64,000 nt of DNA from Candidatus Iainarchaeum sp. (GTDB taxonomy: Archaea; Iainarchaeota; Iainarchaeia; Iainarchaeales; JAXPJC01): NCBI GenBank assembly GCA_016187745.1, contig JACPJC010000001.1:29571-93570 (forward strand), in the 5' to 3' direction. Shown here in pieces: positions 2,422 to 54,741 of this stretch; within the stretch, counting starts at the first letter, position 1, and each line of letters begins with the position of its first letter. The notes beneath the pieces were generated by a model. It was given only the letters and a program-made list of their open reading frames with translations. It was not told where the DNA came from and made no database searches. Both the position numbers and the translations under genes were made by a program.

Positions 2422-3346
2422 TTTTTTCTTTCAGTGCAGCAATCATTATGGGAAACAAGATTGTCGCATCCCCCACAACATTTGCTGTTTTTCCCTTCTC
2501 CTGTATTTTTCCCCAGCTCTTCGCTTCCTTTGTTTGTGCGCCAGAAAGGCTCCCGTCATATTCTGAGGCAGTTGAAACATACACTGCATAATCTAATCCT
2601 TCCCTCACAATATTCGCGCCTATCACATGGTGCTTTGAAATTCCCCCGCCTAAAATTATTCCCGCGGTTTTATCAGCATTAAGCACAATGTTCGCAAGCT
2701 CCTTCATATCCCCGGTTACATCAACGCAGAAATCAGGGTGGTTCTGCTTGAAGAAGAACATCTGCAATCCTATTGCGCCGTCTGTAATTCCCGGGCAGAA
2801 AACAGGGATCTTGTTTTTTGCAGCCCAGTAGAGGAAAGAGCTTTCATTCAGTCTGCTCCCTATGAATTCATTCAGCGCCCTTGGGGAAGTTGATTTGCTG
2901 CTTGCATACAGTTCCGAAAAAATCTTCTGCATCTTTTTCTCAAACAGCACAAAATGCCCCGTGGGGATGAAAATATTCCCGAGGCGGTTTATGCTTTTCT
3001 TGTGCAGCTCAACATCATTAACATCAAACGCGCCCTTGTAATACGGCACAAACGATTTTATCACATCATGGTCAATGCTTCCCGCTGTTGTCACAATCGC
3101 ATCAATGAAATGGGACTTGCACAGCTCTGCAAACACCCCGCGCAATCCGCTCGCTACCATGTTTGCCGTAAAAGCAAGGAAAATTGTGCATTTCTCCTCC
3201 TTCATTTTGCGCAGAATCTCAACAGCATCAGCCAGATGGGAAGCCTGAAAGCCAGAAGCGGAGAAAATACTGACCAGATCATCTGCTGAATTTCCGCCTT
3301 CATTCAATTTCATGTCCTTTATTTCCTCAAGGCCTAATTTCTTCAT
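2405..3346 (-). CDS. dys: Deoxyhypusine synthase
   Basis: 313 aa. Conserved DHS blocks (TANMVASGLRGV..., GGGISKHHVIGANI, spermidine/NAD-binding region). Overlaps the downstream gene by 17 bp. Confidence 0.85.
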   Translation of the reverse strand: MKKLGLEEIKDMKLNEGGNSADDLVSIFSASGFQASHLADAVEILRKMKEEKCTIFLAFTANMVASGLRGVFAELCKSHFIDAIVTTAGSIDHDVIKSFVPYYKGAFDVNDVELHKKSINRLGNIFIPTGHFVLFEKKMQKIFSELYASSKSTSPRALNEFIGSRLNESSFLYWAAKNKIPVFCPGITDGAIGLQMFFFKQNHPDFCVDVTGDMKELANIVLNADKTAGIILGGGISKHHVIGANIVREGLDYAVYVSTASEYDGSLSGAQTKEAKSWGKIQEKGKTANVVGDATILFPIMIAALKEKNGMWE

Positions 3347-4084: not shown

Positions 4085-6496
4085 ATGAAAAGAATCCTGT
4101 TTTTGTTTGCGCTTATGCTTTCATTAGGATTTGCAGGCGCGCAGTTTCCATTTGGGCAGCCGCAAGGCCAGCAGGGGGGCTCTGGATTCCCGCAGCAGGG
4201 ATTCCCCCAACAGCAGGGATTTGGATTTCCCCAGCAGATGCCGCAGCAGCAAGGCGGATTTGGCTTTGGCACAGCGCCACAGCAGGGCTTTGGGTTCGGG
4301 CAGGGCCAGCAGCAGTTTACCCCGCCTACTCCCGGATTTATAGGTATGCCAAGCGGCTTTGAAGCAAGCGCAATTGCACTGCCTCCGCAGTTTCCTTCAG
4401 GCGCTCCAATAAATGAAATGGTTTCAGCACGCATGGGGCAGAAGATATTTGAGAGGTTTGGAACGCAGGAATTAATTTCAATGTGTGCAGATGAGGAAAA
4501 AATGGCTGAAACAATTTATGATTATGTAAAGAGCCTGCAGATGCCTGAGCTGTGCGCGCCGATAAAGGAAGGCCTGCAGAACTGCGAGAAATCGATTGAA
4601 TTCTGCAATGCAATGGGTCAGGGAGTGCCATCTGGAAAGGATGGCAAAGAAATACTGCAGGCATGCCCGCCTGATGAGCAAATTATGAAGCAGATCTGCA
4701 TTGAAAGGAACAGTGAGGACCAGGGCAGGCGCTCTGCTGACTTTGATGAGGATGTTCCACTGCAGTGCGAGCTTGATTGGGAAAGAAATGCAGGAAACTT
4801 CCGGAGAATGTGCGAGCAGAGAAAAATTGAAAAGGAGAGAAAAGAATGCAGGCGCCCGGAGTTTGATGAAAGCTTCAGAAGGGACTGCGGCATGCGCAAT
4901 GGAAGGATTATAGACCGATTTGACCAGTTCGGCTGCGTTTCAGGATGGGAATGCCAGGGCGGAGAATCCTTTGGAAGAGAAACGCCGCAAAGGGCAATAT
5001 GCGGAAATAATTTATGCGAATATCAGGAAAACCCTGACAACTGCCCGGGTGATTGCAGACTTACTGGCGCGAGATGCGGGGACAATTTCTGCGATTCCGG
5101 GAATAATGAGAATTCAGGAAACTGCAGGCAGGATTGCCTGCCGAATTGCGGCGACGGAATATGCGCAGGAATTTCATGCATGTCAACAGGCTGCCCAGAA
5201 AGCGAGAATTCAGCCAACTGCCCGAATGATTGCGAAATAAGGCGCGAGCCCGGCGCAATATGCGGAAATACAATCTGCGAAGCAGGGGAGGATTATGGGA
5301 ATTGCGCCTCTGACTGCCAGGCGCCTGTAATAACAGAGGAGCCATTTGTCGGGCAGCCGGCTTCAACCGAAGAAACAGAGCCTTCAACAACAGAAATCGC
5401 AACTTCAACAGAGGCTGCAACAACCACTACTGAAACAACCGCAACATCAGCAGAAACCGGAACTGCAACAACTGAAACAGCAGCAACAACCACAACAACC
5501 GAAACCACAGCCCCCGCTGCAACAACAGAGCCGGCGCCAGAAGCTACAGCAACAACTTCCACAAAAAAGAGAGTTAATATTTATAAAATTTATATGCAGG
5601 GGTTTGGCTATCCGCAGCCAATGGCTCCGCAGCAGCCGATGCAGCCGCAGGGCTTCGGGTTTGGAATGCAGCAGGGCTTCGGGCAGGCGCAGGGAAATGA
5701 AGCCAATGCGCAGGACTTCTGCGACAAGGATTCATATATCCGGAGTTGCATGGGCAGGATGGAGGAGCAGTTCAACCAGCAGTTCCAGGAAACCAATGTT
5801 GACAGGATATGCGAGCTTGAGGCAAAACTGAACAAGAACCAGATGGCAAGGTTCTGCAAGCAGATGGAGCAGGGAAAAGACGATTGCAAAAAGCACGCAG
5901 AAGACGGATGCAAATTCATAGAAAAACAGCTCGGGAAATGCCAGGAAATGTCATCAGAAGAAGGCATAAAATCAATAATAGAAGAAAAGGCGCACGAGGG
6001 ATGCCTGTTCATCAAGATGCAGCAGTCGCAGTTCAGCGGATTCGGCCTTCCGTTTATGCAGCCCCAGGCGCTTCCGCTTGATTCGCAGATATTCAATACT
6101 GTTTCAGCGCTTGCGCAGAGCGAAAACATGCTTACAGGGGAGTATGCCCCGTGGCTTTCAGGCGAAAGGGGCAGGCTTGTGGATGTTGCGGAGGATGTTG
6201 GAAAGGCAGAGGCGAATGAGAAATCAAAAGATTTGATTTACCAGATAACAAAATTCTTCGGCATGCAGAAGGAAAAGGAACTGAAGGAAGCGAAAGCGCT
6301 GGAGAAACAGACTGAAAAGCTTGAAAAAACAATTGAGAATCTGAAGGCGCTTGCAGAGCAGATGCCTGATGAGAGCACAAAAACAGCGCTTGAAGAGAGC
6401 ATCAAAGGGCTGGAAGAGCGCATGTCCGAGCTGCAGGCAATGGTGCAGTCCAAGGAAGCAGGCGCAGCAGGCATAATGGGAATATTCGGCGGATGA
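4085..6496 (+). CDS. Secreted low-complexity protein: signal peptide, FG/Q-rich repeats, Cys-rich DUF4215-like repeats, Thr/Ala-rich stalk, second FG/Q-rich region, C-terminal coiled coil
   Basis: - Signal peptide MKRILFLFALMLSLGFAGAQ.
- About 90 aa of GFPQQ/QGFGFG repeats.
- Four repeats of CG(N/D)xxCExxExxxNCxxDC (nt ~4997-5345).
- TEETEPSTTEIATSTEAATTTTETTATS... linker (nt ~5340-5580).
- Second MQGFGYPQP...QGFGFGMQQGFGQ region.
- Two 8-Cys helical domains.
- Heptad-rich C-terminus ending GAAGIMGIFGG. Confidence 0.8.
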   Translation: MKRILFLFALMLSLGFAGAQFPFGQPQGQQGGSGFPQQGFPQQQGFGFPQQMPQQQGGFGFGTAPQQGFGFGQGQQQFTPPTPGFIGMPSGFEASAIALPPQFPSGAPINEMVSARMGQKIFERFGTQELISMCADEEKMAETIYDYVKSLQMPELCAPIKEGLQNCEKSIEFCNAMGQGVPSGKDGKEILQACPPDEQIMKQICIERNSEDQGRRSADFDEDVPLQCELDWERNAGNFRRMCEQRKIEKERKECRRPEFDESFRRDCGMRNGRIIDRFDQFGCVSGWECQGGESFGRETPQRAICGNNLCEYQENPDNCPGDCRLTGARCGDNFCDSGNNENSGNCRQDCLPNCGDGICAGISCMSTGCPESENSANCPNDCEIRREPGAICGNTICEAGEDYGNCASDCQAPVITEEPFVGQPASTEETEPSTTEIATSTEAATTTTETTATSAETGTATTETAATTTTTETTAPAATTEPAPEATATTSTKKRVNIYKIYMQGFGYPQPMAPQQPMQPQGFGFGMQQGFGQAQGNEANAQDFCDKDSYIRSCMGRMEEQFNQQFQETNVDRICELEAKLNKNQMARFCKQMEQGKDDCKKHAEDGCKFIEKQLGKCQEMSSEEGIKSIIEEKAHEGCLFIKMQQSQFSGFGLPFMQPQALPLDSQIFNTVSALAQSENMLTGEYAPWLSGERGRLVDVAEDVGKAEANEKSKDLIYQITKFFGMQKEKELKEAKALEKQTEKLEKTIENLKALAEQMPDESTKTALEESIKGLEERMSELQAMVQSKEAGAAGIMGIFGG

Positions 6497-10418: not shown

Positions 10419-10493
10419 CTTGATTCACTTGAAACTTCTTTTTTCTTTGGGTAATACCTAGACTTTCTTTTTTGTAAAAAGAAAGGATTGGTG

Positions 10494-10568
10494 TGGGCAT
10501 GGAGGGATTTGAACCCTCGACCCTTGGCTTATAAGACCAATGCTCTGACCAGGCTGAGCTACACGCCC
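10494..10568 (-). tRNA. tRNA-Ile, anticodon UAU
   Basis: The reverse complement GGGCGTGTAGCTCAGCCTGGTCAGAGCATTGGTCTTATAAGCCAAGGGTCGAGGGTTCAAATCCCTCCATGCCCA folds as a 75-nt cloverleaf. Acceptor stem 7 bp with one G-U, D-stem GCTC/GAGC, anticodon stem TTGGT/GCCAA, loop C-T-TAT-A-A, T-stem GAGGG/CCCTC with T-loop TTCAAAT. Confidence 0.8.
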
Positions 10569-23724: not shown

Positions 23725-23761
23725 TCCAAAACACCAGTAAAATTTACTCGGAAGTAGTATA

Positions 23762-24139
23762 TTAAATTATCTGGATTTTCTTTGATGTCGCGCCCTCGAG
23801 CTTTTTCAGCAGTTCTTTCCAGTAATGGGTCTTGCCCTTTTTCAATACGATTTTGTCAACATTCTGCAGCTCCGCAATGTGCGCAATCTTGCTCACGGTA
23901 TTGCCCCATTCCGTAATTTCAACAGCGCTCTTTTTCCTTTTCCCGACGCTTTTTTTCAAATCCTCCAGAAAATCAGTGCCCTGCATTATTTCGCCTGCGG
24001 CAAAGCCGAACTGCCATGCAGGCATTTCCGAAGTGTCAATAACAAGCAGCAGCAGAACATTGTCCGCGTCCTGCGTTGCGGCATCTATGAATTCAGGGGA
24101 ATTCTCCTCGCGCGTTATTATCGGAAGCAGGATTTTCAT
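23762..24139 (-). CDS. Hypothetical protein (possibly an alpha/beta nucleotide-binding/USP-like fold)
   Basis: 125 aa. MKILLPII...NVLLLLVID...KIVLKKG pattern. Confidence 0.4.
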   Translation of the reverse strand: MKILLPIITREENSPEFIDAATQDADNVLLLLVIDTSEMPAWQFGFAAGEIMQGTDFLEDLKKSVGKRKKSAVEITEWGNTVSKIAHIAELQNVDKIVLKKGKTHYWKELLKKLEGATSKKIQII

Positions 24140-24144
24140 TCAAT

Positions 24145-24909
24145 TCACTCCACAATGCAGTAAACATTTTTCCTTTTTTCCATCAGGTCGCCCTTTTCCC
24201 TCAGCAGTTCGCATACTGCCTTTGCAAGGTTCTTGTCAATTTTGAGCTTTTCCGCAAGCTCGTCAGTGTTGCAAGCAGCGCTTTTAAGCGTGGAAAGGAT
24301 TTTTCCGCTGTGCTTGTTGTAAAGGTCTGAATAAACAATGTAGAACAATCCGTCAAACCCGCGCGTGCCCTGCATTTTTCCCGCCTTTATCAAGTCATAA
24401 TACTGGTCGGAAAGCTCGCGCGCAAGATTCTCATTTTTCACAACCATGAAGCCGTCCTTCTTGAAGGTATAGGAATCAACCGCCCTTTCCTGCTGCCCCG
24501 CCTGCGTTGCCGGCTGCTTCGCCTGCGCAATTTCTGCAGGGGCATCCCGCCTGTTTTCCGCCTGCTTCTCCGCAAGCCTGTAAATCGCATACTTGTATTT
24601 GTCGCTGAGTTTGTATTTCTCTGCAATCCCTTTTTTGAGCAGGGCCTGCAGAGCATTCATTTCATCTGCCCTGAGCATTTCCTCGAATTTGCCCTCAACC
24701 CTCTGCGCAAGCGGCTTGTATTTCAGCATTTCAATTACGCGCAGCTCAGCAGGAGCGTATTCCTGAATCTGCTTCTCATTCATTATGTATGAGCCCTTTC
24801 CCGCATTTACAAAATCATATTCCCTTGCAAGGGAAAGCTGCAGCTTTGCGAATTCAGCCTCCGAAAGAGCCAAAATGTATTTGTCAGCAATCTTCTGGAA
24901 TCTGGCCAT
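24145..24909 (-). CDS. Hypothetical protein with a C-terminal winged-helix-like segment
   Basis: Probable start is the ATG at 24909 (MARFQKIADKY...); the upstream 99 codons of the ORF overlap a plus-strand small gene. C-terminus ACNTDELAEKLKIDKNLAKAVCELLREKGDL. Confidence 0.5.
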   Translation of the reverse strand: MARFQKIADKYILALSEAEFAKLQLSLAREYDFVNAGKGSYIMNEKQIQEYAPAELRVIEMLKYKPLAQRVEGKFEEMLRADEMNALQALLKKGIAEKYKLSDKYKYAIYRLAEKQAENRRDAPAEIAQAKQPATQAGQQERAVDSYTFKKDGFMVVKNENLARELSDQYYDLIKAGKMQGTRGFDGLFYIVYSDLYNKHSGKILSTLKSAACNTDELAEKLKIDKNLAKAVCELLREKGDLMEKRKNVYCIVE

Positions 24910-25045
24910 TTTCCAATCCAACCCCAAATAACTATGCGCAATAAAGCTTATAATCAATAAAGGGGGGCACAGGAACCGCAGGTTCCGATGCCCAATAAGC
25001 CCTATAATTAATATTAATAACCAATCCCCCGCATAAAATTGTTCT

Positions 25046-25294
25046 ATGGGCGATGAGAAGCAGGCAAAGCAGGGGATTCTTGAGAAGATAGCCGCAAAGC
25101 TGATGAAAAAGGTCCAGGCGTTTGTCGCATTTGAATTCCTCATATTTACCGCAGGCATGGTTTTCGCATTGATAGTAAAGGATTTCAGCCCGTGGCTCCT
25201 GCTCATTCCGCCGATTCTGGGCTTGATAGCGTATTATTCGGCAGTTTTTTCGCTACTGCTGTTCGCATTTTTCATAATAGTTTTCATTCTCTGA
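25046..25294 (+). CDS. Small membrane protein
   Basis: 82 aa, two TM helices. Confidence 0.35.
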   Translation: MGDEKQAKQGILEKIAAKLMKKVQAFVAFEFLIFTAGMVFALIVKDFSPWLLLIPPILGLIAYYSAVFSLLLFAFFIIVFIL

Positions 25295-25350
25295 TTCAGC
25301 GGCGGTTTGGTCCCGAAACCGTTTAAAAGCAGCAAACCCGGAATTATTCC

Positions 25351-25779
25351 ATGGCGCGCTACTATGTTGATACAAGCATATGGAGGGATTTGCTTGAGGA
25401 CAGGAGGGACAGCATAAAACCATTGAGTGAATTTGCCTTCAAGCTTATGGAGAAGGTATTAAAAGAAAAGCACACAATTATTTTCTCAAAGGAAATTGAA
25501 TCAGAGCTGTGCAAAAGATTCAAAGTTGAGCAAATACAAGATCTGGCGCTTGATAGATTTACTAAAGAAAATCTTGTTTTATATGTGAAGGCAAATGTTC
25601 TGCAATTGAAAGAAGCCGAAACCCTATCTGCAAGGCTGAACATTCCCTTTCTTGATGCGCTGCATGCAATTCTTGCGAGGGACAATTCAGCAATTTTAGT
25701 TACAAGGGACAAGCATTTCGAAGAATTGAGGCATATTGTAGAAATCAGAACGCCTGAGGAAATCATTTCACAAACTTAG
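25351..25779 (+). CDS. vapC: PIN-domain protein (VapC-like toxin)
   Basis: 142 aa. MARYYVDTSIW (Asp in beta1), ...FLDALHAILARDNSAILVTRDKHF. Confidence 0.75.
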   Translation: MARYYVDTSIWRDLLEDRRDSIKPLSEFAFKLMEKVLKEKHTIIFSKEIESELCKRFKVEQIQDLALDRFTKENLVLYVKANVLQLKEAETLSARLNIPFLDALHAILARDNSAILVTRDKHFEELRHIVEIRTPEEIISQT

Positions 25780-26020
25780 GATAAAGCTCCCTCGCAACCT
25801 CTTCCCTGATTTTCTCAAGCTCCTCATCGCTTGTTGTTGTCTTTGAGCTCCCGCGCAATTTCTTTAGATTCCTTATGGCAATCCTGTATTCGTAGTCCTC
25901 AACCATTTTTCTTATTGCCTGGCGCATGAATTCAGTCCTGCTTGCAAAATCAAATGTTCTGCAAATCTCATCAAGCCTTTTGAGGCTTTGCCCCTTCATT
26001 TTGAATGTTATGAGCTGCAT
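25763..26020 (-). CDS. Ribbon-helix-helix antitoxin-like protein (CopG/VapB-like)
   Basis: The in-frame ATG at 26020 gives MQLITFKMKGQSLKRLDEICRTFDFASRTEFMRQAIRKMVEDYEY.... It is convergent with the PIN gene, and the 3' ends overlap by 17 bp. Confidence 0.6.
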   Translation of the reverse strand: MQLITFKMKGQSLKRLDEICRTFDFASRTEFMRQAIRKMVEDYEYRIAIRNLKKLRGSSKTTTSDEELEKIREEVARELYPKFVK

Positions 26021-26052
26021 GTTATATCGTATATACAACGTATATATAAGAT

Positions 26053-26102
26053 TATTCCTCTTCCAAATTGCGCAGATACTCATAGGCTGAAGTAGCGAAA
26101 TA
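26053..26102. repeat. Direct repeat: degenerate copy of the trxB 3' end (left flank of the insertion)
   Basis: ttattcctcttccaaattgcgcagatactcataggctgaagtagcgaaat versus 27350..27399 ctattcttccttcagattgcgcagatactcataggctgaagttgcggcaat (~45/51 identical). It would encode ...SAYEYLRNLEEE*, like the TrxB C-terminus. Confidence 0.8.
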
Positions 26103-26121
26103 GTTAAGCTTAATATCTTGA

Positions 26122-26847
26122 GTGAATGAATTATTTACAGAAGAGATTATTGGAAGCTGCAAAAAGGTGCAAAAACAAATGCCGATTACAAGACCGGAGA
26201 TAATTAAGCAACGACGAGAACCATTAAACAGAGAATTGGGAAGAAATAAAGCATTTATTGCGCAAACAGCACAAACAGAAAAGCCTTTTTCTAAAAAAGT
26301 AGCAGATCTTATCAAGTTAACAACAAGCCCCCATGAAAATAAGCGCCATTATGCAATTGAAGAATTAGGCAAGTTGAGAGACCCAAGGCTTGCTAAACTA
26401 TTTTTGCGTCTAACTGCAGATCGCAATATATATTCAAGCGTATCTTCACAAGCGGTAATTGCTTTGGCAAAATTAGGATATCCCAAAACACCAATAATAG
26501 CAAATAGGGTGGCTAAGATTGTAAGTCGTGCTGGACATAAATTTTCATTTTATACGTTAGAGCAAATTTATGAAGGCATTGCTAATGCAAAAGGCGGCCA
26601 TATCCGCAATTTATTTTCCATTGCAGAAACTAGGTTAAAATATCTGCCGGAGGATAAGAGGGCAGTTTTTAAGGCTGCAATTGCTCTTGGCAAAGTTCCA
26701 CAAGAACAAGTGGAACCTCCGAAAGGAACACATTTTTGGGATGAGGAGTCCGCGAAAAAAGGAAAAATTGAGTTATTGTTTTATGATTGGGAAAACGCCG
26801 CAAAGACTTACACAAATGAGCAATTAATAAAGAGGTTTAATTTTTAA
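26122..26847 (+). CDS. HEAT/PBS-lyase-type repeat protein
   Basis: 241 aa. ENKRHYAIEELGKLRDPRLAKLFLRLTADRNIYSSVSSQAVIALAKLG matches the HEAT-like repeat consensus. Lies inside the DR-flanked insertion. Confidence 0.55.
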   Translation: MNELFTEEIIGSCKKVQKQMPITRPEIIKQRREPLNRELGRNKAFIAQTAQTEKPFSKKVADLIKLTTSPHENKRHYAIEELGKLRDPRLAKLFLRLTADRNIYSSVSSQAVIALAKLGYPKTPIIANRVAKIVSRAGHKFSFYTLEQIYEGIANAKGGHIRNLFSIAETRLKYLPEDKRAVFKAAIALGKVPQEQVEPPKGTHFWDEESAKKGKIELLFYDWENAAKTYTNEQLIKRFNF

Positions 26848-27336
26848 ATGCAGCTTACTTCAAGACGAAACCCTTACAAAATTCCAAGGGCGCTTTATTC
26901 TGAGAAGTATAATGAATTGCCGCTTAAACAACAGAGGGCGGTACTCAGAACTCTGCATAAAACTCACAAGGGACTCTATCTCAGGGCGCATAATCTTGGC
27001 AAAGGAATTGAAAACCTCAATGAGGAGATTGCCAAGCTTAAGACGACAGGCCTATTGCCTGTTGGGCAGAAAGATCGCGCACAGTATATGCAACAGCTAG
27101 AACAAGGGACGAGTCAGATTTTTGAAAGTAAAAAAATTCTTGCCTCAGAACTTAAAAAATTTGTTGCATATGCCAAACCATATTTTGGAGAATTCAATCC
27201 ATTGGAATTTAGGTCAACTCCTAAGGCTGAAAATTATATAGAAAGAATGGTATATGAGACGGCAGGAGAAATTAGATACCTTACAGAGATTTATTATAGA
27301 GCACTAAATAATTTACGATTATTGAAGCCAAGATAA
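26848..27336 (+). CDS. Hypothetical protein
   Basis: 162 aa; its ATG overlaps the stop of the HEAT-repeat gene (TAAATG). Lies inside the DR-flanked insertion. Confidence 0.5.
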   Translation: MQLTSRRNPYKIPRALYSEKYNELPLKQQRAVLRTLHKTHKGLYLRAHNLGKGIENLNEEIAKLKTTGLLPVGQKDRAQYMQQLEQGTSQIFESKKILASELKKFVAYAKPYFGEFNPLEFRSTPKAENYIERMVYETAGEIRYLTEIYYRALNNLRLLKPR

Positions 27337-27348
27337 AAATAATATTCA

Positions 27349-28281
27349 CTATTCTTCCTTCAGATTGCGCAGATACTCATAGGCTGAAGTTGCGGCAATC
27401 GCGCCGCGAGAAACCGCAGTTGTGAACTGGCGCAGGCCTCCGCAAACATCGCCTGCGGCAAAAATCCCGGGAAGGGAGGTCCTGCAGTGCTCGTCAATTT
27501 TTATATATCCCCTTTCATCAATCCGCACGCCAATATGCTTTGCAAGCCCCGCATTCGGGCACAGGCCGGCATAAATGAAAACCCCGTCAACCGGAATTTC
27601 GGAAATTTCATTCGTCTTTTTGTTTTTTATCATTATTTTTTCCACATTCCCGTTTCCTGAAATCTCAGCCACTTCGGAATCCAGGATAATTTTTATGTTT
27701 GGAGCCTTTTCTATCCTGTGCAAATAGATTTTTTCAGCGCTGATTTCGCCCATGTTGTGTATGATGCTAACTTCCCTGCATATTTCGCTGAGATAAATTG
27801 CGGCGCTTACCCCTGAATTGCCCGCCCCAACAACTGCAACTCTTTTTCCTGCAAAGAACGCGCCGTCGCACACAACGCAATAGCTCACTCCGCTGCCGAG
27901 AAGTTCGGATTCCCCCGGCACATTCAACTTTGCATATTCCGTTCCAGTTGCAAGCACTACCGCCCTTGATTTTATGCGCGCGCCGTCGGCAAACAAAATC
28001 TCAAATTCTTTTCCATTTTTATTTATCCCTTTAACTTCCTTCCCCTTCTCAACATCAACATCCAGGTGCCTGAGCTGCGCATCAAAATTCCCGCACAAAT
28101 TGCTTCCGGAAATGCTCGCAAATCCCGGGAAATTCTCAATCAGCACAATATTGCATGCCTGCCCGCCGATTTCCGCATTCCTCTCATATAATTTCACATT
28201 CAGCCCGCGGCGCTTTGCGTATATTGCTGCAGAAATTCCCGCGGCTCCGCTTCCGATAATTGCGAGGTCTATTGTCTGCAT
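27349..28281 (-). CDS. trxB: Thioredoxin-disulfide reductase
   Basis: 310 aa. FAD site IIGSGAAGISAAIYA, redox CVVCDG, NADPH site VVGAGNSG. Confidence 0.9.
   Translation of the reverse strand: MQTIDLAIIGSGAAGISAAIYAKRRGLNVKLYERNAEIGGQACNIVLIENFPGFASISGSNLCGNFDAQLRHLDVDVEKGKEVKGINKNGKEFEILFADGARIKSRAVVLATGTEYAKLNVPGESELLGSGVSYCVVCDGAFFAGKRVAVVGAGNSGVSAAIYLSEICREVSIIHNMGEISAEKIYLHRIEKAPNIKIILDSEVAEISGNGNVEKIMIKNKKTNEISEIPVDGVFIYAGLCPNAGLAKHIGVRIDERGYIKIDEHCRTSLPGIFAAGDVCGGLRQFTTAVSRGAIAATSAYEYLRNLKEE
27350..27399. repeat. Direct repeat: authentic 3' end of trxB (right flank of the insertion)
   Basis: See 26053..26102. Confidence 0.8.
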
Positions 28282-28397
28282 GTTTATTCACTAATAAAAG
28301 AAATAGAAAAGATATAAAAGCTAATTAGGGCGATATAGCGGCGCCAATAGTTTAAAAAACACAGGAAGAATATATCATAACTAACCATTGAACTATT

Positions 28398-28913
28398 TTG
28401 GGGAGACAAATGATTGTTATTGTAATGGGCGTTACCGGATCAGGCAAAACAACCATAGGCAAAATGCTTGCTGAAGAGCTCGGATGGGGCTTCTATGAAG
28501 GGGATGAATTCCACCCTGCAGGCAATGTTGACAGAATGAAGAAAGGAATCCCGTTAAACGATAACGACAGAACGCCCTGGCTGAATACAATTAGGAAATT
28601 AATTATGAAATGTATTAAAGAAAAAGAAAATGCAATAATAACCTGCTCGGCTTTAAAGGAGTCTTACCGTAATTTATTAATGACGGATGATAAAGAGATA
28701 AAATTAGTATATCTTAAGGGGGATTTCAATGTGATTCAGAAAAGATTAAAGAATAAAAACCGTAAAAACCACTTTATGAATCCAAATCTGTTGAAAAGCC
28801 AATTTGATGCCCTTGAAGAGCCCAAAAATGCATTAGAGGTAGACATTTCCAAAAAGCCGAAGATTATTGCCGAATCCATTAAATCAGAATTAACTTTGCT
28901 GCTTTGCGCCTGA
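28398..28913 (+). CDS. gntK: Gluconokinase-like P-loop kinase
   Basis: 171 aa. GVTGSGKTTIG...GWGFYEGDEFHPAGNVDRMKKGIPLNDNDRTPWL matches the GntK signature (GDxxHP..N..KM..G.PL.D.DR.PWL). Confidence 0.75.
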   Translation: MGRQMIVIVMGVTGSGKTTIGKMLAEELGWGFYEGDEFHPAGNVDRMKKGIPLNDNDRTPWLNTIRKLIMKCIKEKENAIITCSALKESYRNLLMTDDKEIKLVYLKGDFNVIQKRLKNKNRKNHFMNPNLLKSQFDALEEPKNALEVDISKKPKIIAESIKSELTLLLCA

Positions 28914-30419
28914 GGCAAGCGCCTGCGCTTCCATGTCTCCGGAAATGAAGTGCTTGACGCCTTTTCTGAATATGTAGAGCAGGGCAATCACCGCAGCAAT
29001 AATTATGCCAAGGACAATGTCGCCCGCGCCTACGGCAAGCCCTGCAAAGCTGAGCGCGCCCGCAGGAACATTTATTGTTTTTGAAGCGAATTTCTTCCCT
29101 GAGGCAATCACATCAAAGCTCACATCCCCCGAAGCAACCTTGGGCTTTGTGACTTTCATTTCCACTACAATTTCCTCCCCGGGAGCAATGTTGAAATGGT
29201 TTGGGGAAAATTCCGCTGAGAACTCAGGCGGCATTGCTGTTATGTCAAAATGCACATCAGTAAGTGTTTCTGCAGTTGTGTTTTTTATCGGCTGCCTTAT
29301 TGCAACTGTTTCAATGCCTGAAACCTCAGGCTCTGCAGGCGCAGCGATTGGCGCAGCTGCTTCCCTTACTTCAACAGTGAATTCCACTACCCTGCTGATT
29401 TCCCCATTGAAATAAATTCTCGCGGGGTAAATTCCGGGAAGCGCGCCCTGCGCAGCCCTAATAGTGAATGGAAGGCTTGAGCTCTCCCCTGCGCCAATAT
29501 CTATTGCATTTGATTTAAGCTGTATCAGCTCCGAGCTTGAAGTCAGGGCAAAATGAAGCGCGTCATATCCTGTGTTTGTTATAAGCACTGAGGAATTGCT
29601 GTCAGTTCCTGAATTCAGCGCATAAACCGCATATGGCACGTCTATTTTTGCATCATAGAGCGGCTTTGCAAGGATTGCAATTTCGCCAAGGTTGAACTGC
29701 AGGTTTGTCGCAAGGTCAAGCAGCGCAATTCCAATTCCATAATTTCCCGGCTGCAGGCCTGAATTGCTTTTTGCATTTATATATATGCTGTACGTGCAGT
29801 TCATGCACACATTGTATGCAATCAGGGGATTTGCGCTCAGATCAATTCCTTCCGGGACATTGAAAAACACCACATTGAAGTCCGAGGCGCTTCCTGAATT
29901 CCTGAAGCTCACAATTGTGCTTTCATTGTCATTCTTTGCCATTATCAGCGCAGGATTGCTGAATTTCACTGCCGAAATGATTGGGGAAATATTCGAATTT
30001 GCGCTTGTTGTGTAAAGGTAGTCTGAGGATTCTGAAACTTCCACAACAATTACCCCGCTTGCGCTCCTTTCCCTCCCGAATTCATCAGCCGCCTTTATTT
30101 TCATCTCAAGGTTGTAGATTCCCGGAAACGCGTCTTCGGCAACCTCAATGCCATAATCAAATGTGTAGGAATCCTGCATCTTTATGGGGGAAAAGTCCCC
30201 AACGAGCTGCACCTTTGGATAATCCCCGGCTTCAGTATAAACAGTTGTAAGCTGATTTGCGCCTTCCACTCCATAAGTTGCGCTAATCGGATAAGTGCTG
30301 CCCTGCTGCATCTCAACCCTGGCGGGGCTTACTTCCATGCTCAGGTAGAGGGCGTTTGCCGTGCCAGCATAGATTATGAGCGCAATGCCGACAAATGCGA
30401 AAAACAATTTGAAGGTCAT
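28890..30419 (-). CDS. Cell-surface protein with a signal peptide and a C-terminal TM anchor
   Basis: 509 aa. Signal peptide MTFKLFFAFVGIALIIYAGTANA, many N-x-S/T sequons, and a C-terminal LGIIIAAVIALLYIFRKGVKH anchor. Confidence 0.65.
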   Translation of the reverse strand: MTFKLFFAFVGIALIIYAGTANALYLSMEVSPARVEMQQGSTYPISATYGVEGANQLTTVYTEAGDYPKVQLVGDFSPIKMQDSYTFDYGIEVAEDAFPGIYNLEMKIKAADEFGRERSASGVIVVEVSESSDYLYTTSANSNISPIISAVKFSNPALIMAKNDNESTIVSFRNSGSASDFNVVFFNVPEGIDLSANPLIAYNVCMNCTYSIYINAKSNSGLQPGNYGIGIALLDLATNLQFNLGEIAILAKPLYDAKIDVPYAVYALNSGTDSNSSVLITNTGYDALHFALTSSSELIQLKSNAIDIGAGESSSLPFTIRAAQGALPGIYPARIYFNGEISRVVEFTVEVREAAAPIAAPAEPEVSGIETVAIRQPIKNTTAETLTDVHFDITAMPPEFSAEFSPNHFNIAPGEEIVVEMKVTKPKVASGDVSFDVIASGKKFASKTINVPAGALSFAGLAVGAGDIVLGIIIAAVIALLYIFRKGVKHFISGDMEAQALASGAKQQS

Positions 30420-39359: not shown

Positions 39360-39824
39360 TTATCCCTGTTGCATTTCACACGTTTCCTTAAGGCAGTTGC
39401 AATCGGTGCCGCACTTCTGGAAATCCTTTACCGCGCAATTGCCAACATCAAATGGGCAGTCGCATATGGGCTCTGCTGTCTGGGGCTGGAAAATGCAATT
39501 GCTCGGGTCCTGCGGGTCGCAGGTCCCATAAACCGCGAGATTGTAAATCGCAAATGCGCTGTAAAACAGGCTCACAACCATTGCAATTGTCATGATCCAG
39601 GAAAGCAGCTCAAAGTGCCTGAATACGAATCCCCCGAGCTTGGGGCTTTTCTGCATTAGCTTTGTGGAAATCTTCATCTTCATCTTGTTGTCGAAGCCTG
39701 TGTTGCATTTACGCAGCGTAATTCTCCTGAAGATGCAGTTGAAGGCCTCCTTTGCGTAAGCGCGGTGGGTTGCGGAGAATATGCCCAGAATACCAAAAAC
39801 AACAAGCGCGATTATGCAGATCAT
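39360..39824 (-). CDS. Membrane protein with a Cys-rich C-terminal region
   Basis: 154 aa, 2 TM helices. C-terminus CDPQDPSNCIFQPQTAEPICDCPFDVGNCAVKDFQKCGTDCNC. Confidence 0.45.
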   Translation of the reverse strand: MICIIALVVFGILGIFSATHRAYAKEAFNCIFRRITLRKCNTGFDNKMKMKISTKLMQKSPKLGGFVFRHFELLSWIMTIAMVVSLFYSAFAIYNLAVYGTCDPQDPSNCIFQPQTAEPICDCPFDVGNCAVKDFQKCGTDCNCLKETCEMQQG

Positions 39825-39869
39825 TTCAGTGCCCCGCTATTTATATTGATAGAATAACTGCATACCTAT

Positions 39870-41170
39870 TGTGAATTACCATAACCTATATAATACTTGA
39901 GGTTATGGCTTCTTGCTTCATAGAACTACTTGCTGTTTCGTTCTCCACAAAGCCCCATCCCAGAGCCAATATGTTTTTAGCGGAATTTACATCTCTCTCT
40001 ATTTCCAATCCACAATCACAGGAGTATGTTCTCTGCGATAATGGAATGTCCTGCATAGCCCCGCAACTGCTGCACATCCTGCTTGTATTTTTTGGATTTA
40101 CTTCTATTACTTCTGCACCAGCACTTTCAGCCTTGTGCTTCAGCATAGAAGCAAATTTTGCCCAAGAACAATCAAGAAAATTGCGCATATTCCAAAACCT
40201 ATTCTTCTTTTTGCTGATCATTTCTTTTATATTCAAACCTTCAATGCAAATCAATTTGTTTTTGCTTACTATTTTTGTTGAGAGTTTATGCATAAAATCA
40301 TTTCTCTGATTTTCAACTTTCTCATATAGTTTGCCTAACTTTTGCTTTGCCCTTTTCCTGTTGTAGCTTCCTTTCTTTTTTCTTGATAAATCCTGATGTA
40401 CTTTTTTTATTTTCTTCAAACTTTTTTTCAGAAACAAAGGAGATTTTATTTTGTTGCCGTTGCTGTCTGCAATGAAATTCATAATTCCAAAGTCAAGCCC
40501 TATTTGCCCTTCTCCCTTTTGTTTCTTGTATATTTCATCTGTTATCAAAATAGCATACCATTTCCCCGCTGTCTTCTTGATTGTTATTTGTTTGATTGCT
40601 CCACTTGTTATTCTATGGCATCTGATATTTATTTTGCCTATCTTTGAAAGTTTGAGTTTTCCGTATCTTTTCCCTGTTTGTTCCAATTCATAACCGCTTT
40701 GGTTGTAGTTTATTGTCTTGAACCATTCCCTTCCCTTGAAGCGCAACTTTCCTACTTTTATACCCTTCCTTTTCAATTGTACCAATGCCCTTAAATTTCC
40801 AAACAGCTTATGGCATTCATATTGCAGAGTTTTTGAATATACATCATCCAATCCAGAAAATTCCTTTTTAAATTCAACAAGGCTGTGCTGTATTTCTTTC
40901 TTGTTTATTTTCTCACTTTTATTCATTTTTTCCAGCAGTTTGTTGTAAGTAAATCTGCACAAATCAAATGTTCTGAACAACGCCTGCTCCTGCTGCTTTG
41001 AAGGGTATAATCTGAATTTGTATGCCATCATAGCTATTTCCCCTTTCCGCGGCTTTCAGTATATTTTGCCTTTAAGTGGCTTTTAATGGTTTTGGAACCA
41101 TTTCGCCACTGAATTACGATATATACCAATTCATCTATAGCCTAACAAAGTTCAGGTTATAGACTCCTTG
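39870..41170 (-). mobile_element. IS200/IS605-family insertion sequence, tnpB-only (IS1341-like); no tnpA
   Basis: TnpB ORF, plus subterminal hairpins at both ends. Right-end hairpin ccataacct-N12-aggttatgg at 39879..39908 overlaps the tnpB stop. Left-end imperfect hairpin ctatagcc-N12-ggttatag at 41135..41162. Confidence 0.75.
39886..41031 (-). CDS. tnpB: IS200/IS605 transposon-associated RNA-guided endonuclease TnpB (OrfB)
   Basis: 381 aa. OrfB N-terminal helix MMAYKFRLYPSKQQEQAL, RuvC-like blocks, and a C-terminal zinc finger CSSCGAMQDIPLSQRTYSCDCGLEIERDVNSAKNI. Confidence 0.9.
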   Translation of the reverse strand: MMAYKFRLYPSKQQEQALFRTFDLCRFTYNKLLEKMNKSEKINKKEIQHSLVEFKKEFSGLDDVYSKTLQYECHKLFGNLRALVQLKRKGIKVGKLRFKGREWFKTINYNQSGYELEQTGKRYGKLKLSKIGKINIRCHRITSGAIKQITIKKTAGKWYAILITDEIYKKQKGEGQIGLDFGIMNFIADSNGNKIKSPLFLKKSLKKIKKVHQDLSRKKKGSYNRKRAKQKLGKLYEKVENQRNDFMHKLSTKIVSKNKLICIEGLNIKEMISKKKNRFWNMRNFLDCSWAKFASMLKHKAESAGAEVIEVNPKNTSRMCSSCGAMQDIPLSQRTYSCDCGLEIERDVNSAKNILALGWGFVENETASSSMKQEAITSSII

Positions 41171-50497: not shown

Positions 50498-53089
50498 TCA
50501 TTCCCCTATTTTTCTCATTATCTTCTCATGCATGCGCTGTATGAACTGCAATCTTCCCTCAATGCGCATTATGTCCGCATAGCCCTGCGAGTACAGGTTA
50601 AGGGCAAAGGGGCTCGGCAGCTCTGCTGTTTTAATTTTTATTTCAATTTCCTTGTTTTCAATCCATTTGAGCAGTTGCTCCGCGTGCCTTATGTCCATGG
50701 CATCCTCAAGGACTTCCCTGCGCGTTTCCCTCAGTATCGGAAAATCATTGCCGATGCGCTTTACCGCGCTCAGCAACAGGCGCGCATTCATCTGCTGCTT
50801 TCCCACGGATTTTTCCCTTCCCCTGTAGGAGCGCAAAATCATTAAGGAGCGCGTTGCGCAGTGCCTAAAGCGCCTTCTGAATAATTCCGTGTCATCAATC
50901 GCCTTTTCAAGAACCATGCGCAGATTCCCGGATTTCAATAAACTGAAAGCGTGCTCAATCGGCATCTTTGTGTCCGCGCTCAAAATGAAGCCATTGTCAT
51001 CCAGCACTATTTCAATGTCCTTGTGCACCAATTTCCCAATTACATAGGCAAGCGCCCTGCTCAGCGCATCATTAGTGCGCCTTCCGAATGTTGAATGGAA
51101 AATCGCATGGCGCATTTCCTCCTCCTTGTATATTTCAACCAGCAGCTTTTCATTGTGCGGGATTTCGGCATATCTGAACTGCTCGTGGAAATATGAATAA
51201 ATCGCATTTGCCGCGTTTTTGTCCACATAGAGATAGGAATTTATGAAGTCAATTATTTCGGCTTTTGCCCTTCTCGCAGAGAATTTCTGCTCCATCAGTT
51301 TCCTGAATTTCTGTATTTCAAGCGCAAGGTCAAAGCTAAGCGGGAGCATTTCGCTGAACCAGCTTGGGACTGTGGGGGGCCTTTTCTCCGCGCCCGAAAC
51401 ATTTGCAACCATCCCGATTGCGTGCCTGAACACATAGCTCTGCCCGCCAAGGACAAAAACATCGCCCTTGTGCAGGCGCTCCAGAAAGCCCTCATCAATT
51501 GTGCCAATAACAAAATCACCCAATTTCACTTTCACGCGCGCTTCATCTGGGATAGTGCCAATGTTTGTCATATATAGAACGCGCGCAAGCTTCCCGCGCT
51601 TTCCGATTATTCCGGAAGCCTCATCATGCCAGATTTTAGCATAAACATTGCGAGTTTCCAGGCTTGTGTAAGTGCCGGAAAGGTAATTTATTATTTCAAG
51701 GAAGTCATTCCTGCCTAATGTGCAATAACAATAGCTGTGCCTTATTATTTTGAGCAGTTCATCAATGTGGATTTTTGAATCAATTGCAATTCCATAAATC
51801 TGCTGCGCAAGCACATCAAGCGCGTTTTTAGGAACTGAAATTTTATCAAGCTTCTTCTCAAGCGCATTTTTCAGCAGGACAGCGCACTCCACAAGGTCAT
51901 CCCTGTCCAGTACGACAATCCTGCCCTTTATCTGGTCATGCAGCTTGTGTCCGCTTCTTCCGGTGCGCTGTATTGCCCTTGCAACGCTCTTCGGGCTTCC
52001 CAAGAGTACAACAAGATCTATATAGCCGATGTCAATGCCCAACTCCAGGCTTGTAGATGATATTACTGCTTTCAGTTTCCCTTCCTTCAGCCTGTTCTCT
52101 GTATTTATGCGCAGTTCCCTGCTCAGTGAGGAATGGTGTGCCTCAATATTTGTTTTGCTGTAATATTTTGGATAATTCTCTTTCAAATAATGCACCACTC
52201 TTTCGGTAGCGGAGCGCGTGTTTGTAAATACAAGTGTTGTTTTGTGCTCCTGAATCAATTCGTGCAGCGTTTTGTATAGCGCGGAATGTATCTGCTCCTG
52301 CGTGACATTGATCAGGTCCGGAAGCGGCGAAAGCACCTTCAAATCCATTTTCTTCAGGAAATTCACATCAACAATCCTGCAGCCCCTTGGGGTTTCTGCA
52401 TTTTCCATTCCCACGAGGAATTTTGCAATTTCCTCAAGCGGGGCAATGGTTGCGCTCAGGCCGATGCGCGCGAAGTTCGGATTGTAGTGCTGCAGCCTTT
52501 CCATGCTTAATGAGAGGTGCATTCCGCGCTTGTTGTCAGCAAGGGAATGGATTTCATCCACAATAACCCATTTTATTTCCTGCAGATGCGCCTTGAAGCG
52601 CGGGCTGTTGAGGAGTATTGCGAATGATTCGGGAGTTGTAATTAAAATGTGCGGGGGCTTTGCGAGCATTTTTGCCCTTTCGCTTGCGGGGGTATCTCCC
52701 GTACGAACAGCAACCCTCACATTAATATCCTTCCCCAATTTTTTTCCGGCTTTTGTGATTTCAGCAAGAGGTTCCTTCAGATTTTTTTCAATGTCATTTG
52801 AAAGCGCGCGCAATGGCGAAATATAAAGGCAGTAAACCTTGTCCTCAAGCATTTTGCTTTCGGAAAGCGTTATTAATTCGCTCAGTACTGCTGCAAAAGC
52901 GCTTAGGGTTTTTCCAGTTCCTGTTTCTGCGCTCACAAGAGTGTTCTGGCGCTGATGGATATTCATTATTGCATAGCGCTGTGGCTCAGTAAAACTGCCA
53001 AACTTCCATCTGAACCACTTCGCAAGCAGGGGATTCAGCGCTGAGAATATCTCCTCATCCGAGTATTTTTGGACCTGGGTTTCTATCAT
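50498..53089 (-). CDS. lhr: Lhr-family large ATP-dependent helicase (DExH)
   Basis: 863 aa. ETGTGKTLSAF, VIVDEIHSL, SAT, helicase C-terminal QRTGRSGH; a long C-terminal Lhr-core-like extension. Confidence 0.8.
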   Translation of the reverse strand: MIETQVQKYSDEEIFSALNPLLAKWFRWKFGSFTEPQRYAIMNIHQRQNTLVSAETGTGKTLSAFAAVLSELITLSESKMLEDKVYCLYISPLRALSNDIEKNLKEPLAEITKAGKKLGKDINVRVAVRTGDTPASERAKMLAKPPHILITTPESFAILLNSPRFKAHLQEIKWVIVDEIHSLADNKRGMHLSLSMERLQHYNPNFARIGLSATIAPLEEIAKFLVGMENAETPRGCRIVDVNFLKKMDLKVLSPLPDLINVTQEQIHSALYKTLHELIQEHKTTLVFTNTRSATERVVHYLKENYPKYYSKTNIEAHHSSLSRELRINTENRLKEGKLKAVISSTSLELGIDIGYIDLVVLLGSPKSVARAIQRTGRSGHKLHDQIKGRIVVLDRDDLVECAVLLKNALEKKLDKISVPKNALDVLAQQIYGIAIDSKIHIDELLKIIRHSYCYCTLGRNDFLEIINYLSGTYTSLETRNVYAKIWHDEASGIIGKRGKLARVLYMTNIGTIPDEARVKVKLGDFVIGTIDEGFLERLHKGDVFVLGGQSYVFRHAIGMVANVSGAEKRPPTVPSWFSEMLPLSFDLALEIQKFRKLMEQKFSARRAKAEIIDFINSYLYVDKNAANAIYSYFHEQFRYAEIPHNEKLLVEIYKEEEMRHAIFHSTFGRRTNDALSRALAYVIGKLVHKDIEIVLDDNGFILSADTKMPIEHAFSLLKSGNLRMVLEKAIDDTELFRRRFRHCATRSLMILRSYRGREKSVGKQQMNARLLLSAVKRIGNDFPILRETRREVLEDAMDIRHAEQLLKWIENKEIEIKIKTAELPSPFALNLYSQGYADIMRIEGRLQFIQRMHEKIMRKIGE

Positions 53090-53166
53090 ATATATCTTCT
53101 ACATAACAGAATGCTGTTAAGCAAGCACTTACATATAATATATAGAATAGAAATAAAAATGAATTA

Positions 53167-54741
53167 TTATATTAATTCCGCCTTTTTCAAAACCTGCGGA
53201 ACACTATATTTGCATTTTCTTACTCTCTGTAATGCCCTTTTAGCCTCTTTTTTAGTAAGAAAGCCGACGGTAACTTCTCTTGCTAAACGGGTGGTATCTG
53301 GGTGAAATCCTAAATTTTTACATAACGGCTCTTCTGCAGCGCAGGCTAAAAGGCAGGAAGCAGCATTGGATTGAACATTATGATAATAATTCCATCCCAT
53401 CTTTTTAAGAATTTTTTTAGTATCTTTTAATTTTGCCTGAATCAAAAATGGAAAATGCACAATATAAACAGCAGGCTTATCGGGAAAAGGTTTTAATTTT
53501 CTAATTGCAGATACAACTAGTTTCTTTTGCGAGGTGCTTTGTTTTAAGGAGGTCCATTCATTAATTCCAATTGCTACTGCCCGCACTCCGTGCTTGAGAG
53601 CCTCAAAATAGCGAGCATGGATTATTAATTCTCTGCATACCCAGCAAGGTCGCACAACACCCTGATATTCTCTACGGCCAGCTACATAATCCTTAACAAA
53701 TTCCTCTTTTTTATCTCTTTTATAGAGGTCTGCCATTTTGCGAAAGCTTCTTAGCATTTTTTTAGTAATATATTTTCTGACAGGGATTATTTCATAATCA
53801 ACTCCGCACATCTCAGCCACCTTTTTTGCTCTTCGGTAAATGTAAGGGTGGAAATAACCCAGGTCAAAAGTGAATGCGAGAGGGGTAAATCCCATTTCTC
53901 TAACCTGATATAGTGTGGCTGAGCTATCCTTTCCGCCAGAAAGCCCTACCATTATATCGTATTTTCCTTTGCCGCTTCCTATGAATGATTTGAAAAGTGC
54001 TAATTCTTTAGCTAGAGCTTTCTTGTCAAAATTCTTCAGGTATATTTCGCAAACATCACAATAGCCTTCCTTATTAAACTTAATAAAAGGGTTCTGATTT
54101 GTATTAATACACTTCTTGCATTCTTGTATTTTTTTTGGGATTAAACTTTTTATTATCTTATCCACAATCTCTGCCACACAAATAGTGGAAGTGTTAAATA
54201 CCAAATCAGCCTCTTTCTCAATCTTCTTTGTTAGATATAGGCGGTCTTCCTCTTTTAATTCGTTTAAAATCTCTTTCTTCGAATACCCCCTTTTCTTGGA
54301 AAGTCTTTCTAAAATGTCTTCTTTATTTGCTTTAAGGAAAACAACCAAATAGCCTTGTTTCTTGAAATATTTCGCATTTTCGTATCCTCTAACGCCGGTA
54401 AATATCAAAGGCGCTGTAGGATATTTTTTTGAATAGATATTCTCAAAAGTCTCTGCTATAAAAGAGGGAAAATATTGTTTAACTAAAGAAGAGAAGATTT
54501 CCCTCGCATCTTTCCTATTTATCGGGGCTTTGGCAGCCAGATTTTTATCAACAATTTTCTCAAGACTATAAAGAAGCGTGTTATAATTGGAGGGCAATTT
54601 TTTGAAATGGCGCGCTATGGGAACAATAAGACCATCGGAAGATTCTACAATTTTATAATTAGGGAGTTTGAAAGATAACTTTTTTGCAATTGTTGACTTG
54701 CCTGTTGCAGGCTCTCCAAAAATTACAATATTTTTTAACAT
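53167..54741 (-). CDS. Fusion protein: N-terminal P-loop kinase-like domain + Zn-ribbon + PP-loop ATP pyrophosphatase (N-type ATP PPase/amidotransferase-like) domain
   Basis: 524 aa. Walker A FGEPATGKST at the N-terminus; CKKC...CDVC zinc ribbon followed by the PP-loop VGLSGGKDSS, and a later CWVC pair. This architecture resembles N-acetyl-sugar amidotransferase/QueC-like enzymes. Confidence 0.65.
   Translation of the reverse strand: MLKNIVIFGEPATGKSTIAKKLSFKLPNYKIVESSDGLIVPIARHFKKLPSNYNTLLYSLEKIVDKNLAAKAPINRKDAREIFSSLVKQYFPSFIAETFENIYSKKYPTAPLIFTGVRGYENAKYFKKQGYLVVFLKANKEDILERLSKKRGYSKKEILNELKEEDRLYLTKKIEKEADLVFNTSTICVAEIVDKIIKSLIPKKIQECKKCINTNQNPFIKFNKEGYCDVCEIYLKNFDKKALAKELALFKSFIGSGKGKYDIMVGLSGGKDSSATLYQVREMGFTPLAFTFDLGYFHPYIYRRAKKVAEMCGVDYEIIPVRKYITKKMLRSFRKMADLYKRDKKEEFVKDYVAGRREYQGVVRPCWVCRELIIHARYFEALKHGVRAVAIGINEWTSLKQSTSQKKLVVSAIRKLKPFPDKPAVYIVHFPFLIQAKLKDTKKILKKMGWNYYHNVQSNAASCLLACAAEEPLCKNLGFHPDTTRLAREVTVGFLTKKEAKRALQRVRKCKYSVPQVLKKAELI

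Follow-up and report, generated by a model that had tools for sequence, protein, structure and literature searches.

The 64,000-nt stretch of DNA from Candidatus Iainarchaeum sp., a tiny archaeon of groundwater, analysed here (the window, in whose numbering all positions are given unless a contig is named) carries, next to the thioredoxin reductase gene trxB, a two-gene segment of ~1.25 kb bracketed by a duplication of the trxB 3′ end. According to a reading of the sequence and the list of open reading frames (ORFs), the gene order between positions 25000 and 28800 is an 82-aa membrane protein gene (+), a PIN-domain gene (+), a ribbon-helix-helix (RHH) gene (−), a short trxB-like fragment, a HEAT-repeat gene (+), a gene for a 162-aa protein (+) and trxB itself (−). 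An Rfam scan of 24000–29000 detected no RNA families.

The putative target of the insertion, trxB (27349–28281, minus strand; Pyr_redox_2, E = 5e-53), is intact and encodes a 310-aa thioredoxin reductase (TrxR) with 92–95% amino acid identity to its orthologues on the related contigs L012, L024 and L025. The first gene of the segment (26179–26847, plus strand) encodes a 222-aa HEAT-repeat protein (HEAT_2, PF13646, E = 4e-8). Its start is most likely the ATG at 26179, which has GGTG upstream and matches the start of its homologue, rather than the GTG at 26122. The second gene (26848–27336, plus strand) directly abuts the stop codon of the first in a TAAATG junction (26845–26850) and encodes a basic 162-aa protein with no Pfam match, identical to HYW05_00390 of a Candidatus Diapherotrites metagenome-assembled genome.

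The top direct repeat of the region aligns 26053–26097 with 27350–27394 over 45 nt, without gaps and at 89% identity; counting the first base of the stop codon, the copies span 26052–26097 and 27349–27394 and are identical at 40 of 46 positions. Both contain the exact 27-mer ATTGCGCAGATACTCATAGGCTGAAGT (26067–26093 and 27364–27390), which has no further site in the window even when up to three mismatches are allowed. Read on the minus strand, the left copy ends in SAYEYLRNLEEE and the right copy in SAYEYLRNLKEE, each followed by a stop codon. The six mismatches (26052, 26058, 26061, 26063, 26066 and 26094) are clustered, all but one falling in one arm of the repeat, and a clean run of 27 nt has P ~0.02 under random placement. 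The preliminary description of this DNA, made from the letters alone, had claimed that a degenerate copy of the trxB 3′ end brackets the ~1.25-kb segment. Alignment confirms this in the form of 46-nt repeats with a 27-nt exact core, and the similarity between the two segments is significant, with none of 100 shuffles giving any match to the 27-mer. The repeats bracket the insert and correspond to the sequence of its target.

Empty sites and hybrid ends of the insert

For comparison we used an occupied relative (L012/L013), three contigs from a JGI metagenome scan with TrxR (L024, L025 and L026, at 94–95% amino acid identity) and two short contigs found through a search with the PIN protein (L046 and L048), together with a same-strain set of 16 independently assembled contigs (L014–L023 and L035–L040) from ~12 sequencing runs. 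A scan of genome contigs with TrxR returned distant bacterial relatives only, at no more than 41% identity, which were of no use for finding empty sites. The arrangement of the window is present in all 16 same-strain contigs and, because these were assembled independently, it is not an assembly artefact.

Empty sites of the kind expected from the preliminary description are found in L024, L025 and L046, where the RHH gene is followed by a 31-nt promoter-like spacer and then directly by an intact 310-aa trxB, and where the HEAT and 162-aa genes are absent; L012/L013, by contrast, carries the insert. Both repeat copies of the window map to the single trxB end of these three contigs, with the insertion breakpoints coinciding with the repeat. 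In a blastn comparison with L024, window positions 23743–26097 correspond to 4100–1801 of the contig and positions 27350–29207 to 1845–1, and in both L024 and L025 (~87% nucleotide identity) the two collinear blocks share, on the contig, precisely the stretch of the repeat. Sliding identity to the left of the insert is 80–92% between the window and the empty-site contigs versus 68–82% between the window and L012; to the right of it, the corresponding values are 83–91% and 76–85%. As the backbone is closer to the empty-site contigs on both sides, it is therefore of the empty-site type, and the HEAT and 162-aa genes are the insert.

Segment-wise counts of differences from the relatives reveal that each repeat copy is a hybrid, and that the two are reciprocal. 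Over the 16 nt nearest the stop codon, the left copy shows no difference from the chromosomal trxB end of L046, an identity that extends to 33 of 33 positions. The right copy differs there from L046 at five positions and from the functional trxB end of L012 at two, and it carries all five bases that discriminate the L012 end (AAG GAA GAR TAR versus GAA/AAA GAG GAA TAA). Over the next 25 nt the two window copies are identical to each other. In the 16 nt distal to the core this pattern is inverted, with the right copy showing no difference from L024 and the left copy, unrelated to trxB at this point, showing 11–12. Beyond 26097 the left copy has no relation to trxB, and its sequence from 26102 onward shares homology with the left end of the L012 element (AGTTAAGCTTAATAT).

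Judged from these alignments, the left copy (26052–26097, minus strand) would be attL, the displaced original trxB 3′ end with its last 14 codons and stop, made up of a chromosomal B arm (26052–26066), the shared core (26067–26093) and an element-derived P′ arm that begins at 26094–26101 (AGCGAAATAGTTAAGC). The right copy (27349–27394, minus strand), which is the functional trxB 3′ end, would be attR, made up of an element-derived P arm (27349–27363, CTATTCTTCCTTCAG), the core (27364–27390) and then the chromosomal B′ arm. Between them lies the inserted body of ~1.25 kb (26098–27348, plus strand), as delimited by blastn synteny and composition. The length of the repeats is within the archaeal range, as crenarchaeal att sites measure 29–69 bp with a median of 45 (PMC6563490). 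The hybrid arms therefore point to the product of one reciprocal crossover between the attP of a circular element and the trxB end.

We consider it highly probable that the segment was inserted conservatively into the 3′ end of trxB and that the element brought the end of the gene with it. We infer a circular form with an attP of ~45–50 bp resembling the last 45 bases of trxB, which would have undergone a single conservative, reciprocal crossover with the chromosomal trxB 3′ end, the exchange falling inside the 27-nt core (26067–26093). The resulting attL would join the original stop-proximal arm to the core and the element arm, and would be left stranded beside the RHH promoter, while attR would join the last five codons and stop, in the copy brought by the element, to the core and the body of trxB. 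TrxR would thereby stay full-length, its sole change being E to K at the third-from-last residue, and RHH would keep its upstream context. The empty sites and hybrid arms support the earlier interpretation of the repeats as attL and attR of an integration into the 3′ end of trxB; as for the term site-specific, these data fit enzyme-mediated and short-homology single-crossover recombination alike.

Cargo genes and a second occupied lineage

The composition of the insert is foreign. At 36.9% GC, the bracketed segment lies at the 2.5th percentile of the window (mean 45.1 ± 3.2%), and GC content at third codon positions (GC3) is 28% in the HEAT gene and 33% in the 162-aa gene, as compared with 49–59% in neighbouring host genes. 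The insert is thus AT-rich, as first described, but the low-GC stretch is not confined to it and also takes in the PIN and RHH genes (40.3%).

The HEAT protein is all-alpha in an AlphaFold2 (AF2) model (predicted local distance difference test, pLDDT, 75), with fold matches to alphaRep/HEAT-like scaffolds only. The 162-aa protein is predicted to form a three-helix bundle (AF2 pLDDT 81; helices 26–67, 77–113 and 130–157), which gives generic matches and no specific fold. Neither has a significant match in PHROGs or PADLOC. Among 5.8 billion proteins, the HEAT protein has one homologue (P0004, 68% identical) and the 162-aa protein one close homologue (P0002, 61% identical), both encoded on the Logan contigs L012/L013. 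A profile search added five remote homologues of the 162-aa protein (P0038–P0043) that have an N-terminal KIP..FSEKY..LP.KQ motif in common. These are encoded by single genes on other archaeal contigs, all five facing, in convergent orientation, a housekeeping gene that lies downstream (RelA/SpoT-like, PheRS beta and others), and no repeats flank them; the 162-aa family is therefore by itself no marker of mobile DNA. Three of the five lie within ~100 nt of a contig end (L041 1–580, L043 1–472 and L044 1–621), which may reflect assembly breaks at variable upstream DNA.

In the second occupied lineage, L012/L013, both genes are again found at this trxB end, and neither the right junction nor the left terminus of the element is different. 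To the left of the element, L012 has only 18 nt before the stop codon of an 80-aa gene; within it, CAAGTGCGA may be a vestige of the core end and P′ arm (8 of 9 nt), though this is suggestive only. L012/L013 is thus literally a case of the same genes in the same position with no full repeat, which the preliminary description had named as a sign of an ancestral arrangement, but it is outweighed by the empty sites and the hybrid arms.

Codon-based divergence places the window, L012 and the empty-site lineages at roughly equal distances from one another (synonymous divergence, dS, 0.4–0.9). The window and L012 copies of the element genes differ by dS values of 0.45 and 1.06, about as much as host genes do, and the ratio of nonsynonymous to synonymous divergence (dN/dS) is 0.47 for the HEAT gene and 0.24 for the 162-aa gene, compared with 0.03–0.13 for host genes. 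By these measures, both cargo genes are real and constrained, if fast-evolving. We also considered the low amino acid identity of the cargo proteins (61–68%) as an argument for independent integration of diverged variants and rejected it as proof, since synonymous divergence is host-like and relaxed constraint accounts for the low identity.

The data allow two histories: two gains, one in the window lineage and one in the L012 lineage, or one old gain followed by precise losses in the L024/L025 and L046 lineages. Either needs more than one recombination at the same core. Within the window, the two cores are identical at 27 of 27 positions, including a G (26085 and 27382) that has no counterpart in any of the four relatives, which points to a recent event or to gene conversion.

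Origin of the insert

We favour, with a probability of roughly 0.6, the reading that 26098–27348 is a small integrated genetic element that entered the trxB end by a Campbell-type event, was mobilised in trans and is now an islet resembling the cis-mobilizable elements (CIMEs) of bacteria. That there is no integrase between the repeats, as first described, proved correct, and neither cargo protein resembles a recombinase; recombination would therefore have been carried out in trans, by an integrase of a helper element or of the host, or by host homologous recombination acting on short homology. The candidates for the activity are three: an integrase in trans, an integrase of the element's own that was lost before its two copies diverged, and host short-homology recombination. 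For the narrower proposition that it was the two-gene unit that integrated, by means of a recombinase in trans, as opposed to its being the stump of a larger element, the balance is somewhat favourable, and we infer on this footing a trans-acting enzyme and a two-gene integrating entity. In its present state the islet would be stable, integrase-less and att-flanked, comparable to a bacterial CIME.

Several observations weigh against this reading. Pfam, PHROGs, PADLOC and fold searches of the element gave no recombinase, only the HEAT and three-helix-bundle proteins, and none of the 31 window ORFs (of 60) scanned against Pfam is an integrase, the only find being a TnpB. The scanned set comprised 8 + 10 + 10 + 3 ORFs, the last 3 within the element, and the other ORFs were judged to be housekeeping genes from their sequence. 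Neither an attP nor an attB junction occurs in the 16 same-strain contigs, which as assembled contigs would miss rare forms. In IMG/VR, no match was found to the exact 27-mer, to a degenerate attP pattern or to profiles of the HEAT and 162-aa proteins, and the element DNA had no match in PLSDB or a phage collection; a cognate autonomous element with an integrase for the same att site was likewise not found in IMG/VR, PLSDB, the phage collection or the 31 window ORFs. The 5.8 billion proteins hold only two copies of the element, one of which, in L012, is without a full attL. The G shared by the two window cores needs an identical base in attP, or gene conversion. Finally, as the two element copies have diverged about as much as host genes, the data would also be compatible with an old insert, passed on vertically and then lost with precision in the empty-site lineages.

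The TnpB (IS605 OrfB-type) gene encodes 381 aa (39886–41031, minus strand) with OrfB_IS605, Cas12f1-like TNB and HTH_OrfB_IS605 domains. It sits in a low-GC patch (~39600–40250), and no TnpA was seen adjoining it. The other marked low-GC patch of the window (52900–54000) overlaps a 524-aa gene (53167–54741, minus strand) with AAA_18/SKI-like and QueC-like domains.

The strongest alternative, which we nevertheless regard as unlikely, is that a full-size virus or plasmid with a tyrosine integrase entered at the trxB end and that internal deletions then spared only the two genes and the att sites, so that the two-gene form was never mobile. Such decay would account for the lack of an integrase between the repeats and for the presence of integrated junctions only in all 16 assemblies. 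It also has precedent, as the decay of ICEs and IMEs (integrative elements of the conjugative and the mobilizable kind, respectively) into att-flanked CIMEs is the standard bacterial route (PMC5704250), and it suits DPANN genomes, which are streamlined and deletion-prone; L012 has already lost most of its attL. However, the same two genes, left terminus (AGTTAAGCTTAATAT) and P arm occur in two lineages whose element copies differ by a dS of 0.45–1.06, such that the decay must predate their split, whereas the 27 of 27 identical core positions of the window, with their shared derived base, suggest a much more recent recombination of the two-gene form. Moreover, both genes are under purifying selection (dN/dS 0.24–0.47) and are not decaying.

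The perfectly matched att cores of the window, set against the long divergence of the two known copies, could be read as a sign of activity. A speculative extension of the trans-mobilisation reading, to which we assign a low probability, is that the HEAT/three-helix-bundle unit is a miniature non-autonomous element still active in Diapherotrites, repeatedly excising and re-integrating at the trxB end by means of a recombinase in trans, much as a miniature inverted-repeat transposable element (MITE) might if it depended on integrases; less likely still, one of the cargo proteins would be a new recombinase or targeting factor.

Also of low probability is a reversed polarity, in which the HEAT and 162-aa genes were resident beside trxB, as they are in L012, and the import was instead an 'A-type' fragment consisting of the 82-aa gene, PIN, RHH and the first 45 nt of a donor trxB end. 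This fragment would have arrived by homology-facilitated illegitimate recombination, anchored by homology on its left side and joined at a microhomology (AAGT.GCG) on its right, and the left repeat would be hitch-hiked donor DNA. In line with this, the DNA specific to the window relative to L012 is exactly 25295–26101 (PIN, RHH and the trxB fragment), the L012 spacer contains a possible AAGT.GCGA microhomology, and a hint of mosaicism comes from the 254-aa, 82-aa and RHH genes, which are nearer to L025 than to L012, and the 79-aa and 125-aa genes, which are nearer to L012. Yet the genes to the right (those for the SKI-like kinase and the 509-aa and 1304-aa proteins) are also nearer to the empty-site contigs (83–91%) than to L012 (76–85%), and the recipient would have to be an otherwise unseen A-type backbone with HEAT and 162-aa genes. 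Why the trxB ends of donor and recipient should show 5 differences in 16 bases followed by none in 27 would be left unexplained, and an earlier replacement of the trxB end by the element type would still be required.

Hardly credible, finally, is the idea that the repeats arose as the 45-bp target-site duplication of a transposon-like insertion, or by local tandem duplication, and that the non-coding copy then mutated: direct repeats do flank the insert and no integrase is present, but no terminal inverted repeats are reported at its ends, it has none of the transposases or casposases of DNA transposons, insertion sequences and casposons, its 46-nt repeats are hybrid rather than identical, the clustering of mismatches in one arm is left unexplained, and the coding (right) copy, which should look chromosomal beside a diverged free left copy, shows the opposite.

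The trxB neighbourhood and known elements

To the left of attL lie the PIN-domain gene (25351–25779, plus strand; PF01850, E = 6e-10) and the CopG-type RHH gene (25763–26020, minus strand; PF01402, RHH_1, E = 3e-5), which are convergent and overlap by 17 nt at their 3′ ends. The preliminary description had called this pair vapBC-like and typical cargo of mobile islands. The pair and its convergent, 3′-overlapping layout are real, but since genomes with the empty site carry it at the same position, it is not cargo of the element; PIN is part of the chromosomal context, and RHH is a chromosomal neighbour of trxB outside the element. The same layout is found in L012, L025, L046 and L048 and in the Woesearchaeota contigs L049–L051 (2501–3260), where the PIN protein is 46% identical and a convergent 85-aa RHH homologue 33% identical (E = 2e-7). 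Its conservation as far as Woesearchaeota marks it therefore as a stable architecture and not a decayed vapBC operon. As in VapBC type II toxin-antitoxin systems, a PIN-domain protein (PF01850) is encoded beside a ribbon-helix-helix protein, and the small cassette shifts position between relatives; unlike in those systems, where the antitoxin gene lies first in a co-transcribed operon, the RHH gene is on the opposite strand, and both genes lie outside the att repeats.

In L012/L013 and L048 the PIN-RHH block occupies another slot, between the 79-aa and 125-aa genes (window 25295–26051, L012 925–1676 and L048 960–1713), with block boundaries at the neighbouring stop codons; the PIN gene carries a frameshift in L012, whereas in L048 it is intact. 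The 31-nt spacer between RHH and the trxB-end copy (26021–26051, minus strand), the left chromosomal flank of attL, is promoter/operator-like, carrying a TATA box and CGTATATA motifs in tandem. Its identity is 100% among the window, L024, L025 and L046, while its surroundings are 77–92% identical. To judge by its motifs, the spacer may be the RHH operator, and could also constrain the adjoining copy of the trxB end.

Other genes also come and go nearby. L025 has a 146-aa HEAT-repeat gene between the 254-aa and 125-aa genes, whose product is unrelated to the HEAT protein of the window, and a 739-aa secreted protein gene between TyrRS and the 79-aa gene; in L012, the SKI-like kinase is followed by a 6PGD-like gene. 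These further indels lie at 2903–3343 and 4273–6492 of L025 and at 5958–6857 of L012, and no duplicated gene ends were found at any of the three. The region around trxB forms a local hot spot for the turnover of cassettes. Elsewhere in the window, ARAGORN identifies a tRNA-Ile with anticodon TAT (10493–10568, minus strand), an uncommon way of reading AUA in archaea.

Among known systems, the nearest archaeal precedents are thaumarchaeal elements, of which 14 of 68 integrate into the 3′-distal part of protein-coding genes and supply the stop codon (NitEve-E2 and 13 others; Krupovic et al. 2019, PMC6563490). As in the window, their repeats correspond to the 3′ end of a gene, the element supplies the end codons and stop, and an empty site exists in a close relative. 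They are, however, typically several to tens of kilobases long and nearly all carry an integrase (or casposase), whereas the insert described here has 1.25 kb, two genes, no recombinase and a DPANN (Diapherotrites) host. A related precedent is the integration of prophages and genomic islands at tRNA and tmRNA 3′ ends by tyrosine integrases (lambda-type Campbell model; class II archaeal integrases, PMC8371274), which likewise yields hybrid attL and attR with a core of identity and rebuilds the 3′ end of the target from element DNA. It differs from the present case, where the target is protein-coding, there is no integrase, and no arm-type binding sites were identified.

The CIMEs of streptococci, such as those related to ICESt1 and ICESt3, are islands flanked by att sites from which the genes for integration and transfer have been lost (PMC5704250). 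The islet at trxB resembles them in retaining attL and attR without integration or transfer genes and in consisting of cargo only, so that mobility would come only via the enzyme of another element. CIMEs are bacterial, however, and are defined by an ICE or IME partner with an integrase for the same att site, whereas here no partner is known and there is no sign of accretion or mobilisation. We file the insert as a CIME-like, integrase-less integrated islet that is new in its host phylum, its target gene and its very small size.

Mobile elements of DPANN archaea are poorly known, and in this instance the full evidence of integration can be read from metagenome contigs alone, in the form of an occupied site, three sites that are empty, the hybrid arms and a further lineage that is occupied. 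These findings add trxB to the protein-coding integration targets of archaea and document a two-gene, att-flanked islet without a recombinase. If the unit is not mobilised, it would be an ordinary integration scar marking a hot spot of small-cassette turnover around trxB; if it is mobilised in trans, it would offer a minimal model for non-autonomous integrative elements in archaea.

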